A DNA stretch of 64,000 bases from a virus (Duplodnaviria > Caudoviricetes). Positions 9,099-58,899 of the stretch are shown here, one piece after another. Under the pieces are notes generated by a model, which was not told the DNA's origin, ran no database searches, and saw only the letters and a program-made list of their open reading frames with translations. A program made the position numbers and the translations under genes. Location: the IMG/VR virus record IMGVR_UViG_3300033067_000449, positions 3,361 to 67,360 of that record; one strand, written 5' to 3'. How positions within the stretch are numbered: the stretch's first letter is position 1; each line of letters begins with the position of its first letter.

Positions 9099-9614
9099 TT
9101 AAATCTGGTCTTCGTCTATTAGTGTATAGGTGAATATCTCTGTGGCTTCCTTCTTAAACATTGAATAGGCAAGCGGAGATATTACTTGTGAGGCTTCTGA
9201 TTGTCCCGATAGAACACTCTTCGTGCTGAAGGGCCAAATGAAGTGAAGAGGGTGGAAGATTAACTGTACTCCACAAAGTTTGGCTTCATACTCGTCAAAG
9301 ACGTTTAGTTCGTTGATGGTGTCTCGTAGGATGACGTGTGAGCGTTGTTGTCCGTAGTGTACAAAGTGTTTTGCTTTTGTGTAGACGTATTGGCCTGTTT
9401 GGAGCATTAGGTGATTGGGGCGGGTATTCATTTTGAATTCGTATCCTGTCTCTCCTTCTATTACCATTATTAGTTTGTCTTCTAGTCCTTGTAGATGTGA
9501 GACCCCCGAATCAGTTCTTATGCCAACCAAATGGAACTCGTAATTCCAAAAGTATCCTTCCGAAAGCATGTACTCCCGAATCCTGTCTAATTTATAATCT
9601 GATATCTTTTTCAT
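9099..9614 (-). CDS. degenerate paralog of the endolysin 39636..40220; catalytic Cys replaced by Ser
   Basis: Colinear motifs LVGIRT/VIGIRN, NTRP/TTDP, GQY/GQY, LRD/YRD, GVQLIFH/GINIH, QSEASQV/WSHGCTV, FTYTLI/FTYTVI. Confidence 0.75.
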   Translation of the reverse strand: MKKISDYKLDRIREYMLSEGYFWNYEFHLVGIRTDSGVSHLQGLEDKLIMVIEGETGYEFKMNTRPNHLMLQTGQYVYTKAKHFVHYGQQRSHVILRDTINELNVFDEYEAKLCGVQLIFHPLHFIWPFSTKSVLSGQSEASQVISPLAYSMFKKEATEIFTYTLIDEDQI

Positions 9615-39635: not shown

Positions 39636-40220
39636 ATGTTTACCAGAGAACAAATTGAAGCGGCTGTAAAAGCCAAAGGGTACAAGTACTTTGAAAATGG
39701 CGATTACAATATGAACGTAATCGGAATCCGTAATAGCGCTCCAGGCAAGAAAGTAACCAACGTATTTGACGATTGGATTTCTATTTCATTCAAGGAGAAC
39801 GGAGAGTGGAAATTCTTTATTTGGAGTGCAACAACCGATCCTGGAAAAGCACCAATGGCTGAGGGAAACAATGGTACGGGTACTGCTCGCATCGTTCCTG
39901 GTCAATACCCTGGTTCTCACTGCGTTGGATTGCATCAAGGTAAGTATGAAGCATTGAAGCAGAAAGCCAATGTGAAGGTTTATCGTGATGCCAACAAAGA
40001 TATGGCTTATGATGAGAGTAAAATCACCGAGGGTGTTTACGGAATCAATATTCATAAGGCAGGTCAAGATTCAACATGGATTGACCACTGGTCACATGGA
40101 TGTACTGTGTTCAAGCGAGTGAAGGATTTTGATGTGTTTATGCAGCATTGCAAGAAAGCCGCCAAATTGCAAGGTAACTCTTTTACATATACCGTTATCG
40201 AAAGTAAGGATATCGCTTAA
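39636..40220 (+). CDS. putative endolysin, L,D-transpeptidase (YkuD)-like His/Cys enzyme
   Basis: 'GINIHKAG...WSHGCTVF' HxxG...SxGC catalytic motif. Confidence 0.7.
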   Translation: MFTREQIEAAVKAKGYKYFENGDYNMNVIGIRNSAPGKKVTNVFDDWISISFKENGEWKFFIWSATTDPGKAPMAEGNNGTGTARIVPGQYPGSHCVGLHQGKYEALKQKANVKVYRDANKDMAYDESKITEGVYGINIHKAGQDSTWIDHWSHGCTVFKRVKDFDVFMQHCKKAAKLQGNSFTYTVIESKDIA

Positions 40221-51939: not shown

Positions 51940-52177
51940 AAGACCATCTTCAAATAAAGCCACAGGACGCGATTACAGCTACGATAAGGAATATCAGAAG
52001 GGCAAGGTAGCATATCGTCAAGAACTTAACGCAGAGGCCCGCAAAAGGGGTATTTATGGTAAGAGAGCAACTAAGGGTGTAGACCTCTCTCACAAGAAGG
52101 ATGGAAAGATGGTATTAGAAAAGAAAAGTACCAACCGTGCCCGTCAGGGATCTAACGGTAAGTCTACTAAAAAGTAA
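51911..52177 (+). CDS. basic protein, possibly a degenerate HNH-like family ('RDYSYDKEYQ...G.D.SH..DG.M....NRAR')
   Basis: Motif pattern; last plus-strand gene, convergent with the terminase. Confidence 0.6.
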   Translation: MKNKIVGKNKRPSSNKATGRDYSYDKEYQKGKVAYRQELNAEARKRGIYGKRATKGVDLSHKKDGKMVLEKKSTNRARQGSNGKSTKK

Positions 52178-53981
52178 CCTCTCTCCAGACTTTCATTGCC
52201 TTTCCATTCTGATATACAATCATTGGAATGGTTTTCTTCTGAGGTGCAGCATCAACTTTCTTCTTGAGTTTCTCCATCAGATCTTTGTGATAGATTTCAC
52301 AACCAACCACAGCATCCAACAAATCCGTATTCTCAGTAATGTAGACCTTTGCTTCTTCAATCATCTGAATCAAATAAACTGACTCAAAATTCTTACGAAG
52401 ATAATCAATCAAATAAGCGTTGGCTCTTTCTGCAGTGTGGTCATTCTTATACCAACCATAAGGTCTGTCTTTACTCAAGAATGTTTTTCCTAAGTTTCTT
52501 GGTGACGGAGCCAACAAATCTTGACGATTGTTTGTTCTGTATGTATCCAAGATAACACCACCTCGGTTAATCTCAATCATAACCTTTGCTCCACCGAAGT
52601 AATCTTGTAGGTTGATGTTGTTGGTCATAATCAAATCTGGATCGGCTGCTCTTTCTTTGTAGAATCCAACGTATGTATTTGTGTCTAAGTTCTTGATTGC
52701 TATGCAGTTATCAGAACCATCTCCTAGTTTAGACGAAATAAATGGAATCGGGTCCATCCCCGCAATATACTTGTGGTTGGGATTGTATCTTTCTAGAAGA
52801 GTAAACTTTCCTTCTTTGTCTGGCTTTACTTGTAATTCACCGTTGATGTCCTTGTAAATCATACACTTTTCAATCGGTGGGGGCTCAGACAAAATAATCC
52901 TTTCCTGCTGATTCAACTTATGAATAACATCAACAGGCAATGCACCATGAGACGTAGAAGAGAACACCTCATTGATATCCAACGGATACTGCTTAATGAA
53001 TGAGTTCAAGAATGACTTATCCTCAATTTTATCTAACTTCTCACGAGTCTTATTAATCCACTCTGTTGCTCCCTCAATATCAGAATAGCCATTAGGACAG
53101 AAGTTAAGAATCTTTCCTGTCTCTCTACCGTCTCCGTCAATCTCTGGTGCTTCCATAATTCCCATGTTTCCAGGAAGAAATACAGTAAGCAAGTTAAGAT
53201 TCTCAGCGTTCTTCCAAAGATTGTTTGCAAGTTTCTGTCCGATAGATGTAGATTCACCCGCACTACCACCAATTACAATGGGCGCAACCTTAACGAAACC
53301 AGATTTAACGCTCGCCTGTGCTGACTTGTATACTTGGTCTGCTTTAGGATGAAGAAACGCCTCGTCAAGAAAACAATGCATCGCACGATACGCCTCAAGT
53401 GCAGTTGGAGTGTCAACTGTTTCACGAGTTACAATCTGTGAATCCAATCCACTAATCTCACCTGTCTTTTGGTCTTTTACTCCCATGTGAAGATAACCAA
53501 CCTGACGAGTTGAGATAACGCTTGGTTTTACATAAGGGTCAAGGTTATCGTAAATTACACGTGTCTTTTCCTTGTATAAGTTCTCAAGACGAGTTTTATC
53601 TGCGCTGGTAATCAGTGAAGTTGAACCTGGGTTTGTCAATGCAATCCACATTGGTGCAACTCCACCGAATATCAACGAAAGACCAATCTCACGACGTTTA
53701 CTTACAAACAAATCGTGATTCGTTCTACGTGCTTCTTCATATGCCTCATAGATCAGTTCATCTACATCTCTCCAAATAGGACGCTTTCTGAATCCACGAG
53801 CATCCTTGATAAAGCACTGGGTAAGAGCAAAATAATGAATACCAGTCAGACCATCTCTACCATCAATCCAATACTCTCTTTCATTTCCCCACCAAATATC
53901 TTTCTCTTTCTTAGTGGCATGTGGATTAAGAGCGTTCTTTGCTGCCCATAAATCGTATTCAAATCTTGCTGCTTTTGTCAT
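52167..53981 (-). CDS. terL: terminase large subunit
   Basis: Walker A-like 'SKRREIGLS', Walker B 'CFLDEAF', coupling 'IGGSAG', nuclease 'AGMDPI...SDN', 'EINRG', 'DLLDAV'. Confidence 0.88.
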   Translation of the reverse strand: MTKAARFEYDLWAAKNALNPHATKKEKDIWWGNEREYWIDGRDGLTGIHYFALTQCFIKDARGFRKRPIWRDVDELIYEAYEEARRTNHDLFVSKRREIGLSLIFGGVAPMWIALTNPGSTSLITSADKTRLENLYKEKTRVIYDNLDPYVKPSVISTRQVGYLHMGVKDQKTGEISGLDSQIVTRETVDTPTALEAYRAMHCFLDEAFLHPKADQVYKSAQASVKSGFVKVAPIVIGGSAGESTSIGQKLANNLWKNAENLNLLTVFLPGNMGIMEAPEIDGDGRETGKILNFCPNGYSDIEGATEWINKTREKLDKIEDKSFLNSFIKQYPLDINEVFSSTSHGALPVDVIHKLNQQERIILSEPPPIEKCMIYKDINGELQVKPDKEGKFTLLERYNPNHKYIAGMDPIPFISSKLGDGSDNCIAIKNLDTNTYVGFYKERAADPDLIMTNNINLQDYFGGAKVMIEINRGGVILDTYRTNNRQDLLAPSPRNLGKTFLSKDRPYGWYKNDHTAERANAYLIDYLRKNFESVYLIQMIEEAKVYITENTDLLDAVVGCEIYHKDLMEKLKKKVDAAPQKKTIPMIVYQNGKAMKVWREVTF

Positions 53982-54298
53982 CTTTTCTTTCCAATCGTTC
54001 TGTCTAAGAATGAAACCGTATCGTCAATGATATCTTCTTCAGGATAGGCTTCTAACTTAGCTAATTTCAATGACTTATTGATTTTGTCTCCTGCTTGTAA
54101 CAACTGAAACAATCCCTTTTGGTAGTCATCATCCAAGTTTAATGTCTTGTTCTTTACGGCATCCATTAACTGTTTTGAAGCCGATACCAGTGTAGAATAG
54201 AAATCTTTAGCAGGATCTGTGTCCTGTAAACTAATCCTCTCAATGGCATCAGCTTCAGATATTTTATTTTCCTTTAGGAACTTTTGAAGTTTTTCCAT
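53978..54298 (-). CDS. putative terminase small subunit
   Basis: Helical 106-aa protein overlapping the terL start (ATGA). Confidence 0.45.
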   Translation of the reverse strand: MEKLQKFLKENKISEADAIERISLQDTDPAKDFYSTLVSASKQLMDAVKNKTLNLDDDYQKGLFQLLQAGDKINKSLKLAKLEAYPEEDIIDDTVSFLDRTIGKKR

Positions 54299-54464
54299 CT
54301 TTGATAGCTTTTATCTTTTTCTTTTGGGCTTCTATCTGCTTCTGAGCCTTGTTCTTAGACTCTTCGTTTTGAGTCTGTTCATAGAATTCCCACCATCCGA
54401 AAAGCTTTTCGAGTTCTTTTACTTCTTTATTTATATTCGCCATAAGTTTATTGCTGTTTTCCAA
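54264..54464 (-). CDS. hypothetical coiled-coil protein (66 aa)
   Basis: ORF track; overlap chain. Confidence 0.55.
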   Translation of the reverse strand: MENSNKLMANINKEVKELEKLFGWWEFYEQTQNEESKNKAQKQIEAQKKKIKAIKDGKTSKVPKGK

Positions 54465-54820
54465 AATTCTAAATCAAATTCTAACATATCTCCTTCGATG
54501 ATTTCCCACTTCAGGGATTTCATAATCTTAAATAAGTTAGCAAGTGCGTGTAATTGTGCTACTGAGGGATTACTTACATATTTGTAATCTCCATTTACTC
54601 CTCCGTGTATTGCTAGGTGAATTTCAGTCTGGGGTTTCAGAGCATGAATCTTTCCTTCTCTATCTAGGAAGTGAGTAAACAAATCTTCCTTGTGTCCTAA
54701 TCCCCCTACATGATAAGTAGGAGTATCAAGTTTTGGTTTCTTACGAGCATACTCCAACACCTCAGAAGCAACTAGTCTGTCTTCGGGTCTTGTGTATGTC
54801 CAATAGACGTAGAGTTTCAT
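54431..54820 (-). CDS. degenerate T7-lysozyme-type amidase (Amidase_2 fold) lacking the Zn ligands
   Basis: Aligns by eye to T7 gp3.5: LYVYWTYTRP/IFVHCSATKP, HFLDREGKIH/HFIIKRDGTVE, LAIHGG...NPSVAQLHAL/VCLVGG...NFTPAQMQSL, EFDLEFW/SFDLKRW. Confidence 0.7.
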   Translation of the reverse strand: MKLYVYWTYTRPEDRLVASEVLEYARKKPKLDTPTYHVGGLGHKEDLFTHFLDREGKIHALKPQTEIHLAIHGGVNGDYKYVSNPSVAQLHALANLFKIMKSLKWEIIEGDMLEFDLEFWKTAINLWRI

Positions 54821-54823
54821 AAC

Positions 54824-55108
54824 TTAAAGTTTAGACCAAAGGTTTTTGGTTTCACCAGCATACACAGCGTTCGGATGAACGAATTCTTCCTTTTCTGTAT
54901 TGTGGTCAATCATCTTTTGTAGATACCACATTGCTTTCTTCATATCCTCAACTCCACCCTTTTCCTCGCAACGCCAAATGTATTTAATGATGTTTGCAGT
55001 ACAAATCGCATCCAATCCTTTCTTGTTGATTGTTGCTGATTCAAGCGCATCAATGCACTCGATTTTTCCCTGCTTATAGTGTGATGGGTTAATGTTATCT
55101 TTCGTCAT
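54824..55108 (-). CDS. DUF3310 (T7 gp1.7-like nucleotide kinase family) protein
   Basis: 'DNINPSHYKQGKIECIDA...NIIKYIWR...KGGVEDMKKAMWYL'. Confidence 0.85.
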   Translation of the reverse strand: MTKDNINPSHYKQGKIECIDALESATINKKGLDAICTANIIKYIWRCEEKGGVEDMKKAMWYLQKMIDHNTEKEEFVHPNAVYAGETKNLWSKL

Positions 55109-56112
55109 AAAATTTGTCCGTTAATGATTTTGAAGTTCTCAACGTGGAAGGTAAGGTCTTCGTGAACTGTAACGTAAGCAAATCCATTGGCCCATTTTGT
55201 GAATGCGTATGGACGATAGTCAGGACTTAAGTTACACAAGCAACCCATTGACCAAACACCAACTTGTTCTCCACGCAAATTACTTTCAGAGTGATGAGAA
55301 ACTTGATGATAGTGACCTACGATAGTAGAAGCCTTAGCTTTCAAGAACATACCGCGAGCAGGGTTTACGGGTGAGAATACCGATTCTCCCAATTCGTGAC
55401 CGTGTAATACTGTCAGTTTACCCAAGTTAATCATTTCTCTGTTGACAGGAATAATTCTGTATTCGTCTAACCGCAACAATGATTCCAAACTGATGTCGTT
55501 CAAGTCTGCCAATTCACGAGCATTTCTCAAAACATAGGCTCGCATTCTTTCTTCGTGGTTTCCGATCTTGTAGAAGATGGCTTGTGTTGGGAACAACTCT
55601 CTCAAGTACTTGAAGAAGTTTCTACCCATTTCCAATTCTTCTGAAATCTTGGGCCTCCGAATCTCCTTAGAGAAACGAGATACATCATAACAATCCAAGA
55701 TATCGCCATTAAGAATAATCGTATCTACTTCGTGAGATACTCCGTACTCTAATGCAGCAGCAAGTGCATCTTCGTCATGAAAGGGTAAATGGATGTCAGA
55801 TAGGATAAGATACTTACCTTTTCCCAAATTAACAGGCTCCATGTTTTCAGCCTTTGAAACAATATTCAATTTGGCTAATCCTTCTTTTACTGACGAGTGG
55901 TTGGTTAACGTTTTATGTCCAGAAGATTCAGCAGATTTTCTATGTGTTTCTCCCATTGCTCCTTTGTAGTATCTAACCATTCCTCTTGCGCTTTCTACGT
56001 CAACGAATAGACCTTCTTCTTTTGTAAAAATTAAACTAGCCAACGTCTTGTTTGGCAAATCAGGGAATTGAGCGATATAGCTTAGTACTATATCTTGCTT
56101 TGTTGATTTCAT
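55105..56112 (-). CDS. calcineurin-like metallophosphoesterase (start moved to ATG 56112)
   Basis: 'SDIH', 'NGDILD', 'GNHE', 'HGH', 'GHYH' motifs. Confidence 0.88.
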   Translation of the reverse strand: MKSTKQDIVLSYIAQFPDLPNKTLASLIFTKEEGLFVDVESARGMVRYYKGAMGETHRKSAESSGHKTLTNHSSVKEGLAKLNIVSKAENMEPVNLGKGKYLILSDIHLPFHDEDALAAALEYGVSHEVDTIILNGDILDCYDVSRFSKEIRRPKISEELEMGRNFFKYLRELFPTQAIFYKIGNHEERMRAYVLRNARELADLNDISLESLLRLDEYRIIPVNREMINLGKLTVLHGHELGESVFSPVNPARGMFLKAKASTIVGHYHQVSHHSESNLRGEQVGVWSMGCLCNLSPDYRPYAFTKWANGFAYVTVHEDLTFHVENFKIINGQIL

Positions 56113-56516
56113 TTCTTTAAGAATATGGTTGCAATAATACCAATTAAAAACGAAATAACCAAATACCACCAGTTGATTTTGTCGATGTAGGCAACTCTTC
56201 CTGGTACTTTTACTTCGTAAGGTATTGTGTCTCTGAAAGTTATAGTGTCGGGCTTAACTGTAACACCAAAGAAGTTGCCCTTCCTTTCGATAATTAACTT
56301 CTTGGTTTCAATGATTGTGTCGTGTTCGATGATAAAAGAATCTCTGTATTCTGGTACAGGAACTTTAGTTTCTTTAATGATTGTGTCTTTTACGATTACC
56401 GTATCAGTCTCGACTAAATGCGGATATTTGCGTATCAGTTTGTCATACCTCTGCTTTGGAGTTCCACACGAAATTAACGTAATCATAATTACGATAAATA
56501 ATATTGCTTTTTTCAT
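56109..56516 (-). CDS. unimolecular spanin (putative)
   Basis: N-terminal lipoprotein signal with lipobox 'LISC', beta-rich middle, C-terminal TM 'WWYLVISFLIGIIATIF' plus KK. Confidence 0.7.
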   Translation of the reverse strand: MKKAILFIVIMITLISCGTPKQRYDKLIRKYPHLVETDTVIVKDTIIKETKVPVPEYRDSFIIEHDTIIETKKLIIERKGNFFGVTVKPDTITFRDTIPYEVKVPGRVAYIDKINWWYLVISFLIGIIATIFLKK

Positions 56517-56520
56517 AGTG

Positions 56521-56528
56521 CAAATATA
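56521..56528 (-). promoter_or_regulatory. promoter -7 element TATATTTG, 4 nt before the u-spanin ATG
   Basis: Consensus match; heads the spanin-to-terminase operon. Confidence 0.6.
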
Positions 56529-56579
56529 AGATTTAAACCTATAGGTTTATTATAGTCAATCTGTTTTGAACTTAAAAGT

Positions 56580-56603
56580 AAAAGGGGCAGCCGTAGCCAC
56601 CCC
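56580..56603 (-). terminator. intrinsic terminator after the RNR gene
   Basis: Minus strand GGGGTGGC-TACG-GCTGCCCC-TTTT. Confidence 0.7.
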
Positions 56604-56651
56604 CTAAACCCCTAATTAATAAAATATGAAACAGTACAAATATAATAACAA

Positions 56652-58505
56652 TTATACAATTTCGCAAGCACCACCTGCACAAGCAGCTTCGCCCATCAAA
56701 TTTGTATTGTCGTTAATTTCTACAATATTTGCGACATTGATTTTACTCAAACCCTTTGACATTTCTAGGTAGGTAGCCTCGTCAGTATCCTCGAATGGAG
56801 TCTGTTTGTATGAGCCCAAATCTTCAGGCACGAATGACAGACCGTTGTAGTGATTCTGATTCTCCCACAACCATTCTCCAACGATTCCCCACTCGCTTGG
56901 TTTCATAGTCACACTAGCCGAAACGTTGTGTGTATTCTCACCATAGACGTGCCCAGGTTTAATCCATTTCTCGTGGAGCAACTTCACCCTTTCCAAGAAC
57001 TGAATTGCGCTCTCAGAGTGACGAGTAATCGAACCTTTAGGAGCAGCGATTGGAACACATACATATGCCTCAGCAGAAGTGTAAATACTATCCTCTAGCA
57101 ACTCAGGGTGGTTGATTGACAAGTAGGTGTAAAGGGCCTCACTCTTACCTACTTTCATTCTGCGGATGTAGTAATCTGAGTGCCAAGTGTGAACACCAGA
57201 CGAGCATCCCAAAACGATTGATGATGTTCCTGACGGCTTGATTGTGGTGATACGAGCAGAAGGATTGATTCCAATCTCATCGGCAGTAACTCTATTGACT
57301 CTGTAAGCAACTTCAGCAGCCTCAGGCATATCCAAATTAAGAACTGCGCCCGATGCAACACCAGTCATACCGATTCCCAATAAAGCCTCTCTTTCAGTTA
57401 CTTCTTTCCATTCGGGTCTCAGATAATGAAAATCAGTGTAAGATGCTTGCAATGTTCCAATAAAGGCAGCAGCCGCTGTTCTCTGTTCGAAATCATACTG
57501 ATCTTTCAAGTCAGAAGCATTAATCTCCACCAAATTACAGAATTGGAATGAGTTCAAGCTAATCTCAGCGCAAGGATTCGTTCCGAGTTCCAAATCATTC
57601 GTAAAGAAGAAGCCAGGTTCGCCTGAATTACTTGCTTCAACTTTCTTCCACAAGTCCAAGAATTGACTCTTGTTGATTGTACCACGAAGTAACTTTGCAC
57701 TGTTGTTGGCACGACCACGCTGAGGATTTGTTTCATACCACTTACCGAATTTGCAAGTAAGCATATCTTCATCATCGTAATCGAATAAAGCAATCATTGC
57801 GGATCTACGGATACCACCAGCCAATACTGCATTTGCAATATGACATAGGATATCGTGGCACTCTAATGATGTCAACTTTTCTCCGTCTTGTTTACGCTCA
57901 AGAATAGATTCAATTTGCAATAAACAAATTCTCAAAGGCTCTGGTCCTGGAGCAACCCCACCGCTTGTAATCAATCTCTCTCCCTTTGCACGGATAGCAC
58001 GGAAGTCAAAGTTTGGTTTCCAAGTGCTGAGACCGAAATACGACTTCATCAATACCTTTACGGCATCGGCCCATCCTTCGATGTTATCGGGGATTAAGAA
58101 CCTTCTCTGTTTCTTCGGCTTGGCAATGGCAGGTAATTTACTAATGTGATTACGGCTGATGCTATAACCGACTCCAGTACCCGAAAGCAATAAGAACATA
58201 GTCTCATTAAATGCCCGATAGTCGTCAATGTGAAGATAAGAGCAGTTAAAAAGACGAGCGTTATTAACTTCAATAGGTTTACCAGCAAATTGAAGAGAAC
58301 GCATTGACGGAAGAATTTCTCTATTTCGTACAAATTTGTAAGCATTTTTAATTTCTTGTTCTAGTTGGGGAAACTTACGAATGTGCATGTCGATGTTGCG
58401 GTCGATAATCTCATTCCAAGTTTCTCTTCTTTGTTGAGTTTGGTTGTATTTAGCATACTTGCTCCATACAACGATGTCCGATAGTATTTCGTGATTTAGT
58501 TCCAT
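56652..58505 (-). CDS. nrdJ: class II (adenosylcobalamin-dependent) ribonucleotide reductase, monomeric RTPR type
   Basis: 'LPSMRSL', 'FNCS', 'LLLSGTGVG', 'GGIRRSA', 'GTNPCAEI', 'TTIKPSGT', C-terminal 'ACAGGACEI'; no small subunit gene. Confidence 0.92.
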   Translation of the reverse strand: MELNHEILSDIVVWSKYAKYNQTQQRRETWNEIIDRNIDMHIRKFPQLEQEIKNAYKFVRNREILPSMRSLQFAGKPIEVNNARLFNCSYLHIDDYRAFNETMFLLLSGTGVGYSISRNHISKLPAIAKPKKQRRFLIPDNIEGWADAVKVLMKSYFGLSTWKPNFDFRAIRAKGERLITSGGVAPGPEPLRICLLQIESILERKQDGEKLTSLECHDILCHIANAVLAGGIRRSAMIALFDYDDEDMLTCKFGKWYETNPQRGRANNSAKLLRGTINKSQFLDLWKKVEASNSGEPGFFFTNDLELGTNPCAEISLNSFQFCNLVEINASDLKDQYDFEQRTAAAAFIGTLQASYTDFHYLRPEWKEVTEREALLGIGMTGVASGAVLNLDMPEAAEVAYRVNRVTADEIGINPSARITTIKPSGTSSIVLGCSSGVHTWHSDYYIRRMKVGKSEALYTYLSINHPELLEDSIYTSAEAYVCVPIAAPKGSITRHSESAIQFLERVKLLHEKWIKPGHVYGENTHNVSASVTMKPSEWGIVGEWLWENQNHYNGLSFVPEDLGSYKQTPFEDTDEATYLEMSKGLSKINVANIVEINDNTNLMGEAACAGGACEIV

Positions 58506-58506
58506 G

Positions 58507-58899
58507 TTAGAATGTTTTGCCGTGTTTGTATCCTCTCAATTTATTATAATTGATCTTGAGGAGAATGTGTGTTTCCAAATCTATGCCAAGTCCACCACAT
58601 AGGTCAAAAAGTCTGATTACTGTGTCGGCAATCTCATCTTCGAATGTGTTCTTGACATTGACCTCAAACTCGTGCTTGAAGGTTTCGGCATCCATTGGAT
58701 ATGGATCTTCTAGGTAAGCATCGTGGAGTATTCCTGCGATGTTAGGAGATACCTTGTGTTCTTTGCGTAATGCCTCTAGTCCTTCAGATAGTTCTGAGAC
58801 CACCAACATTAAAAGTTCAGGTACGTTGCGTTCTGAATCCCAGAAGCCTTTTTCTTTTGCAGTTGCGTGTGACAACTCGATTAATTTATCAATATTCAT
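58507..58899 (-). CDS. MazG-like nucleotide pyrophosphohydrolase
   Basis: 'LMLVVSELSEGLEALRK', 'EDEIADTVIRLFDL', 'KINYN..R.YKHGK'. Confidence 0.85.
   Translation of the reverse strand: MNIDKLIELSHATAKEKGFWDSERNVPELLMLVVSELSEGLEALRKEHKVSPNIAGILHDAYLEDPYPMDAETFKHEFEVNVKNTFEDEIADTVIRLFDLCGGLGIDLETHILLKINYNKLRGYKHGKTF

Follow-up and report, generated by a model that had tools for sequence, protein, structure and literature searches.

What becomes of a phage lysozyme that no longer has the residues with which lysozymes cut? The question is raised here by X129, the name we use for a 129-aa protein with a T7-lysozyme fold encoded by the open reading frame (ORF) at 54431..54820 on the minus strand of our window (the whole stretch of 64,000 nucleotides analysed, to which all positions refer). 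The window comes from an IMG/VR virus record of 67,360 bp that is rated 99% complete. A first-pass annotation, made by eye, had described X129 as one of two dead lysins that this phage keeps as sensors, decoys or regulators, and had placed it just upstream of the terminase genes. That location is borne out, with a 66-aa ORF intervening between X129 and the putative small terminase gene. The features of the locus are as follows.

54431..54820, minus strand: X129 coding sequence; 129 aa, 15.1 kDa, pI 7.1, hydrophobic segment absent.
54824..55108, minus strand: DUF3310 protein (PF11753, E = 1.8e-17), the upstream neighbour of X129.
54264..54464, minus strand: 66-aa ORF (p66), which overlaps the 3′ end of X129 by 34 nt and is conserved within the clade of the window.
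53978..54298, minus strand: 106-aa ORF (p106), which immediately precedes TerL, in what is probably the small-terminase position.
52167..53981, minus strand: TerL, the large terminase subunit (phrog_6681, E = 2.9e-17).
56109..56516, minus strand: 135-aa protein, first gene of the likely unit, which has a lipobox at its N terminus and a transmembrane helix at its C terminus, an arrangement like that of unimolecular spanins.
56521..56605, minus strand: strong terminator-like hairpin (56605-56582) and then a TATATTTG box (56528-56521), just upstream of the 135-aa gene.

The stop codon of the DUF3310 gene is followed after 3 nt by the start of X129, and the spanin-like gene, a metallophosphoesterase gene, DUF3310, X129, p66, p106 and TerL are likely to form one transcription unit in this order. 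We infer the start of the unit and the timing of its expression, because the signals present are the terminator-like hairpin and a single promoter-like box. We fetched 64 viral loci that encode relatives of X129, and the order DUF3310-X129-(p66)-p106-TerL holds, as far as the contigs reach, in all 64; p106 is conserved in every related locus with sequence that extends to it. The highest hydropathy of X129 over 19 residues is 0.72 and its N terminus, MKLYVYWTYTRPEDR, is not signal-like. As it has no hydrophobic segment, X129 is predicted to be soluble and to lack an export signal.

Used alone, the X129 sequence matched nothing in Pfam, PHROGs or the PDB sequences, and tblastn against 50,697 phage records gave chance matches only. 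A word-indexed search returned the first relatives, six close proteins with 79–93% identity. With a profile of these close relatives, a HMMER scan of 1.84 billion cluster representatives recovered 16 clusters at E ≤ 1e-3, which extend to about 20–40% identity, and a second indexed search with the HMMER-derived alignment added around 50 more proteins of 123–124 aa. The family alignment (A3) contains 66 sequences; seven of its columns are invariant (G39, G40, L41, G56, G73, G74 and Q89), and in another ten a single residue occurs in 90% of members or more (W7, T8, T49, E66, H68, A70, L93, N95, F115 and W120). Longer or fused forms of X129 were looked for and none was found, which is weak evidence. 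One 233-aa record (P0016), on a 1.3-kb contig, joins an X129 domain to a portal fragment, and this fusion is likely to be an assembly or gene-calling artefact. A family of the X129 type is not described in Pfam, in PHROGs or in the searchable literature on phage pseudo-amidases. In a tblastn search of the phage collection for the nearest cultured phage, TerL found no match at E 1e-5; DNA similarity to cultured phages is confined to the ribonucleotide reductase and DUF3310 genes, and this phage has no tRNA genes.

The family profile, compared with all PDB sequences, matched only T7 lysozyme (1lba, E = 4.8e-5; 1aro_L, E = 5.5e-5); a profile from the larger alignment matched T7 lysozyme with an E-value of 1.2e-3. 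Alignment of A3 with T7 gp3.5 (from NC_001604) in hhalign gave a probability of 94.6% (E = 6.6e-8) over 107 columns, covering residues 4–122. Ten of the 66 family members individually matched phrog_822 (best E = 1.1e-7), the family to which T7 lysozyme itself belongs (E = 5.6e-80), and 26 of 30 matches in an ESM Atlas look-up led to viral Amidase_2 clusters; by contrast, the Amidase_2 model of Pfam (PF01510) matched none of the 66 members, even at E ≤ 10. The T7-lysozyme signal needs the distant family members: an alignment of 7 sequences gave an unusable model (pLDDT 38.6), whereas the AlphaFold2 model of X129 from 66 sequences has a pLDDT of 95.2 and a pTM of 0.88. In a Foldseek search of the PDB with this model, the top match was 1lba (E = 5.4e-5, TM 0.67) and the second 1aro_L, followed by amidase_2 endolysins and peptidoglycan recognition proteins (PGRPs). 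VIA-align superposed the model on 1lba with Z 12.6 and an r.m.s.d. of 2.6 Å over 112 residues, pairing model residues 1..125 with residues 12..143 of the T7 chain; entries 1–47 of its list are all amidase_2/PGRP structures, and a search of a viral structure library with the model gave the same amidase_2/PGRP picture. As a specificity control, the true Amidase_2 endolysin of one relative (G003) was aligned with the family and scored 2.7% in hhalign. In the absence of profile similarity to that protein, we rejected descent of X129 from the amidase endolysin of its own lineage. At the level of the predicted structure, the T7-lysozyme (amidase_2/PGRP) fold of X129 is thus confirmed, and the by-eye alignment to T7 gp3.5 from which the first-pass annotation had proposed it is upheld by the PDB profile search, hhalign, AlphaFold2, Foldseek and VIA-align. 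The fold is common to T7 lysozyme (gp3.5; 1LBA, 1ARO chain L; PF01510) and X129 over almost the entire protein. Both also carry the motifs V-G-G, P/T-x-A-Q and F-D-L-x-x-W, and each is a small phage protein of one domain that stays in the cytoplasm and has no export signal.

The two proteins differ in the active site. The catalytic core generally recognized in T7-type amidases consists of His17, Tyr46, His122, Lys128 and Cys130 (PMC6361986), and X129 has none of these residues. The two stretches that carry the first and third zinc ligands in T7 lysozyme read as follows.

54797..54805, minus strand: Y6-W7-T8, the counterpart of T7 H17-C18-S19 (the ‘HHT’ motif of amidase_2 proteins and PGRPs).
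54485..54496, minus strand: E109-G110-D111-M112, which replaces T7 P-K128-A-C130; the six residues bearing His122 are deleted just before it.

At Y6, the position of the first zinc ligand His17, 58 of 66 members have Tyr, 4 distant members have His and the remaining 4 have another residue or a gap; T8, the Thr of the HHT motif, is kept in 61. The catalytic Tyr46 aligns with F48 (hhalign) or with T49 (the register of the first-pass annotation), and neither column contains a Tyr. His122, the second zinc ligand, falls inside the 6-residue deletion in both the hmmsearch and the hhalign alignments. Lys128 is replaced by G110 (Gly in 59 of 66) and Cys130, the third zinc ligand, by M112 (Leu 43, Phe 11 and Met 8 of 66); D111 (58 of 66) is adjacent to this last position, which is occupied by Asp in AmpD, and would need a one-residue shift to align with it. 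The loss of the zinc and catalytic residues, read at first from a single sequence, is therefore real and family-wide according to the hhalign alignment and the column counts. Other parts of the enzyme have gone as well. The N-terminal arm (T7 residues 1–11) is absent, the loop of T7 residues 59–72 is 11 residues shorter and the loop equivalent to T7 residues 122–127 is shortened. Five positions contact peptidoglycan in this fold, namely the HHT Thr, a Tyr, an Asn and two residues of the β5–α3 loop (PMC6361986). X129 keeps one of the five, the Thr (T8): the Tyr is lost, the Asn lies inside the deleted loop and a shorter, different stretch takes the place of the β5–α3 loop.

The family has also gained conserved residues of its own, most of them in three stretches.

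54680..54715, minus strand: 12-residue insertion relative to T7 lysozyme, YHVGGLGHKEDL (Y-H-V-G-G-L-G-H-K-E-D-L).
54671..54676, minus strand: T49-H50, on the strand that carries Tyr46 in T7; T49 in 65 of 66 members, H50 in 56, with Arg in 9.
54611..54625, minus strand: E66-I-H68-L-A70, on the central strand, equivalent to T7 S-I-G-V-C; E66 in 60 of 66, H68 in 62, A70 in 62.

Within the insertion, G39-G40-L41 does not vary, 58 of 66 members have H37 and 57 have a basic residue at position 43. E109 (54 of 66), D111 and N95 (65 of 66) are conserved elsewhere in the protein, and H24 is conserved in 59 members but is Tyr in the clade of this phage. In seven columns of the alignment, 85% or more of the members have His, Cys, Asp or Glu. 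N95 apart, the gained residues are predicted to fall on, or in the case of the insertion beside, the parts of the fold from which the active amidases build their catalytic cleft: strand 1 at its end, the strand of Tyr46, the central strand (S-I-G in T7) and the loop that leads into the last helix. From the alignment with T7 lysozyme and the periodicity of the strands, we infer that they cluster in the cleft. Given family-specific conserved residues on these elements, the cleft may still be a working site with a different chemistry.

Whether such a protein is maintained can be read from its substitution pattern. The X129 ORF is intact in 63 of the 64 loci, and Nei–Gojobori estimates of dN/dS compare as follows with those of neighbouring and other genes.

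X129: 0.09 in the clade of the window (114 pairs), 0.16 in the second clade (131 pairs).
TerL: 0.05 in the clade of the window, 0.05 in the second clade.
Ribonucleotide reductase: 0.08 in the clade of the window, 0.08 in the second clade.
DUF3310: 0.13 in the clade of the window, 0.12 in the second clade.

With values similar to those of the other three genes, X129 is under purifying selection and is not decaying, which disposes of the neutral decay that the first-pass annotation had named as a possible refutation of its proposal. The gene is not universal: among 114 TerL-anchored loci with enough upstream sequence, X129 is present in 87 and absent in 27, and in nearly all of the X129-less loci DUF3310 lies about 140 nt from p106, a gap too small for X129. 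Five near-complete relatives (95–100% complete) contain no X129 anywhere; as a positive control, the same search was run on 5 carrier genomes and recovered the gene from all 5. A TerL tree built from 62 distinct sequences places the X129-less loci in one clade (14 rows, 99% support) that is the sister of the clade of the window, and a single event therefore explains the pattern. Under midpoint rooting, with the root itself not established, this event was a loss. Because one whole sister clade does without it, X129 seems to be useful rather than indispensable. Identity within the X129 family follows the TerL clades, consistent with vertical descent. Across 11 genomes, X129 is the only gene that is present in all carriers and missing from all five X129-less relatives, and no partner gene co-varies with it.

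Lysis itself probably falls to another gene.

39636..40220, plus strand: probable real endolysin (phrog_33083 ‘endolysin’, E = 4.2e-11), unrelated to X129.

With the catalytic core lost and another probable endolysin present, an endolysin role for X129 is excluded. One relative lacks the 39636..40220 gene and has a true Amidase_2 among its tail-fibre genes instead. The claim of two independent dead lysins was not confirmed. Its other member, the ORF at 9099..9614, has no match in Pfam or PHROGs, and it shows no significant similarity to the probable endolysin of which it might have been a dead copy (BLASTP E = 0.06; hhalign probability 0.2%, from shallow alignments).

Several explanations of X129 have to be weighed against these observations. 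It is extremely improbable that X129 was once an endolysin and is now decaying, or that a canonical endolysin has been misread. The loss of every catalytic residue and the clade without the gene would suit a remnant, but the selection analysis refutes this reading: an ORF that is intact in 63 loci spanning 34–100% identity, at a dN/dS of 0.09–0.16 and with seven invariant and ten nearly invariant columns, is not what decay leaves behind. A misread endolysin is countered by the Pfam Amidase_2 model (PF01510), which matches nowhere in this genome (6 of 14 control genomes did give a match). More can be said for a protein-binding regulator that times late events in the manner of T7 lysozyme, possibly by docking to the host RNA polymerase, the family-A-like DNA polymerase of the phage, the terminase or the real endolysin, although we consider it unlikely. 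T7 lysozyme, the closest structure, inhibits T7 RNA polymerase and does not need zinc to do so (PMC5445346), and X129 shares a unit with the terminase genes. However, the region of T7 lysozyme that interacts with the polymerase comprises residues 2–52 (PMC5445346), and in the structural alignment X129 has helix 1 of this region and lacks its N-terminal arm. Unlike T7, the phage also appears to have no T7-type polymerase for X129 to act on: a search of the 67,360-bp record for PF00940, run without a working positive control, gave no candidate, T7 gp1 found nothing below E 1 by tblastn and phmmer, and the 3.36 kb of the record outside the window contains no ORF longer than 231 aa. In a genome that is 99% complete, the missing single-subunit polymerase and the missing arm together make a T7-style inhibitor unlikely, and the option of an RNA polymerase regulator raised by the first-pass annotation loses ground accordingly. 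Other observations count against a regulator of any kind. Protein interfaces are not usually made of conserved polar residues on cleft elements, as seen here; X129 has no co-varying phage gene, and all candidate phage partners persist in the X129-less clade.

The same polar residues are the main argument for an enzyme. A metal or acid–base site, rebuilt from candidates such as H37, E66, H68, E109, D111 and Y6, might allow X129 to hydrolyse muramyl-peptide bonds or some related substrate in the cytoplasm, a reading that we regard as distinctly unlikely. It would account for the seven columns of His, Cys, Asp or Glu and for the position of D111, one residue from that of Cys130, where AmpD-type amidases have Asp (PMC6361986). 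Strong purifying selection on the candidate residues and the His found at the His17 position in four distant members point the same way. Yet 58 of 66 members have Tyr in place of the first zinc ligand, the deletion has removed the second, and nothing equivalent to Tyr46 or Lys128 is left; H24 is not kept in the clade of this phage, and the conserved Cys residues of the second clade are missing here. To our knowledge, there is no zinc-free amidase_2 enzyme. If X129 does not cut, it might bind peptidoglycan as the non-catalytic PGRPs of animals do and serve as a sensor or decoy for the sacculus or for muropeptides; by analogy with those proteins this is conceivable, and we judge it very unlikely. 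The fold is common to both (Z 7–8), X129 still has the Thr of the HHT motif, and in the endolysin Ts2631 the binding of peptidoglycan does not need the active-site residues (PMC6361986). A protein with neither signal peptide nor transmembrane segment could, however, not reach murein before lysis, and X129 has lost four of the five ligand-contact positions and shortened the cleft-wall loops equivalent to T7 residues 59–72 and 122–127, all of which weakens the PGRP-like sensor put forward by the first-pass annotation.

The reading that we prefer, and to which we would give an even chance, is that X129 is a repurposed pseudo-amidase that binds a putative small ligand in a rebuilt cleft. X129 would be a vertically inherited offshoot of the T7-lysozyme-type N-acetylmuramoyl-L-alanine amidases (phrog_822) that lost, on the way, the zinc centre (His-His-Cys), the Tyr and Lys of catalysis and two loops that form walls of the substrate groove, and that would have gained a glycine-rich H-x-G-G-L-x-[R/K/H] loop together with the polar residues T49, H50, E66, H68, E109 and D111. 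Probably made from the transcription unit of the terminase genes, it would remain in the cytoplasm and bind a small polar ligand there, most plausibly one like a cell-wall precursor or a phosphorylated compound; it would not be the endolysin of the phage, and it would not inhibit a phage RNA polymerase as T7 lysozyme does. The retention of one in five peptidoglycan-contact positions argues against an ordinary muropeptide as the ligand. The conserved His, Glu and Asp residues would be just as compatible with a catalytic or metal site that has been rebuilt. A more specific version of the preferred reading is a long shot: the rebuilt cleft and the H-x-GGL-x-[R/K] loop may form either a new metal centre or a pocket for a phosphorylated or nucleotide-linked wall precursor, with UDP-MurNAc-peptide and lipid-linked intermediates as examples. 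If this were true, a former lysozyme would sequester, sense or process wall precursors in the cytoplasm late in infection, and the state of wall synthesis would be coupled to packaging and lysis. We know of no phage protein that acts on wall precursors in that way.

Comparison with known systems places X129 apart from each of its structural relatives. Animal immune systems offer familiar examples of amidase_2-fold pseudoenzymes, and T7 lysozyme is the classic lysin that has taken on a second job. Non-catalytic animal PGRPs (PGRP-SA, PGRP-LCa and PGLYRP1/3) have the amidase_2 fold, have lost zinc ligands and bind without cutting, and are the general precedent for a pseudo-amidase. They usually lose the Cys ligand only, keep the groove and its contact residues, and are secreted or membrane-bound, whereas X129 is phage-encoded and cytoplasmic, has lost all of the ligands and most of the contacts, and has shorter groove loops. 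AmpD-type anhydro-MurNAc-L-Ala amidases resemble X129 in being cytoplasmic proteins with an amidase_2 fold, and they act on soluble muropeptides; their third zinc ligand is an Asp, and the conserved D111 of X129 is one residue away from that position. In contrast to X129, AmpD is catalytically active and has both His ligands, and its structural similarity to X129 is lower (Z 7.7–7.8). The endolysins Ts2631, Ph2119 and LysC are the next-best structural matches to X129 (Z 8.5–10.2), yet they keep the His/His/Cys triad and the Tyr, are proven to be lytic and often have a cationic N-terminal extension that X129 lacks. Compared with T7 lysozyme, X129 is without the His17/His122/Cys130 triad, Tyr46, Lys128 and the N-terminal arm, and has a 12-residue insertion with an invariant GGL and an 11-residue deletion in the 59–72 loop.

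What appears to be new, judged from sequence and alignment, is a phage-borne and fully zinc-less derivative of a T7-type lysozyme with a remade cleft. Because the family has no Pfam or PHROG entry of its own, automatic annotation misses X129 or would miscall it as an amidase or endolysin, and ‘amidase-like’ matches should not be counted as lytic enzymes when endolysins are mined from sequence data. As a compact and well-modelled protein of 15 kDa, X129 is a target for finding out what former lysin clefts can become. The family represents a third outcome, beside the lysin with a second job and the pseudoenzymes of animal immunity: a homologue of T7 lysozyme kept under strong selection after the loss of both its zinc centre and its RNA polymerase context, in which the former lysin cleft seems to have been remade with new conserved residues.

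The unit that holds X129 (the 129-aa T7-lysozyme-fold protein) and the terminase genes opens with a gene for a 135-aa protein, which most relatives keep. The N-terminus of this protein carries a lipoprotein signal (MKKAILFIVIMITLIS-C) and residues 114–132 form a C-terminal transmembrane helix, an architecture shared with unimolecular spanins, T1 gp11 being one example.

Features at the start of the X129 unit and in the replication/nucleotide-metabolism module (window coordinates).
56652..58899 (-), ribonucleotide reductase and MazG-like genes
56582..56605 (-), terminator-like hairpin (10-bp, GC-rich, with a T-run)
56521..56528 (-), TATATTTG box, past the hairpin and 4 nt upstream of the next ATG
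56109..56516 (-), gene for the 135-aa protein with lipoprotein signal and transmembrane helix
55105..56169 (-), metallophosphoesterase gene

The hairpin lies 3' of the ribonucleotide reductase gene. The window contains 106 copies of the motif TAnnTTTG compared with an expected 74 ± 8, an excess consistent with Bacteroidota-type promoters.

An endolysin candidate is encoded among the tail genes, and its counterpart is absent from the related phage genome G003, which has a true Amidase_2.

Endolysin-related genes.
39636..40220 (+), 194-aa ORF among tail genes, matching phrog_33083 'endolysin'
L139:1387-2037 (-), 216-aa true Amidase_2 of G003, adjoining tail-fibre-like genes

The phrog_33083 match has an E value of 4e-11, and the ORF was found in 8 of the 11 compared genomes, the window's own included; the Amidase_2 in its place in G003 looks like an endolysin swap. 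The first-pass annotation had taken ORF 9099..9614 (-) for a dead endolysin copy, a claim not borne out by comparison with the 194-aa ORF, as the two share no significant similarity (BLASTP E 0.06; hhalign probability 0.2% from shallow alignments). Only 2 of the 10 related genomes have homologues of ORF 9099..9614.

Within the X129 family, the branch of 123–124-aa proteins (clade B) conserves two cysteines, in F-T-H-C-I and N-Y-C-P-G, where the window's clade has Phe and Lys; the pair may form a disulfide or metal site specific to the clade-B branch.

Clade-B examples in relatives.
L024:2129-2488, X129 homologue
L028:8001-8366, X129 homologue

In P0016 (233 aa; NCBI), encoded on a 1.3-kb contig, the first ~100 residues of the X129-family protein are joined to a phage portal fragment (PF04860); rather than a genuine fusion, this joint probably reflects an error of assembly or gene calling.

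The metallophosphoesterase gene is restricted to the window's clade and two of the five genomes that lack X129, and three of those five have neither the ribonucleotide reductase gene nor the MazG-like gene. This patchy distribution therefore indicates that the replication/nucleotide-metabolism module is mosaic among close relatives.
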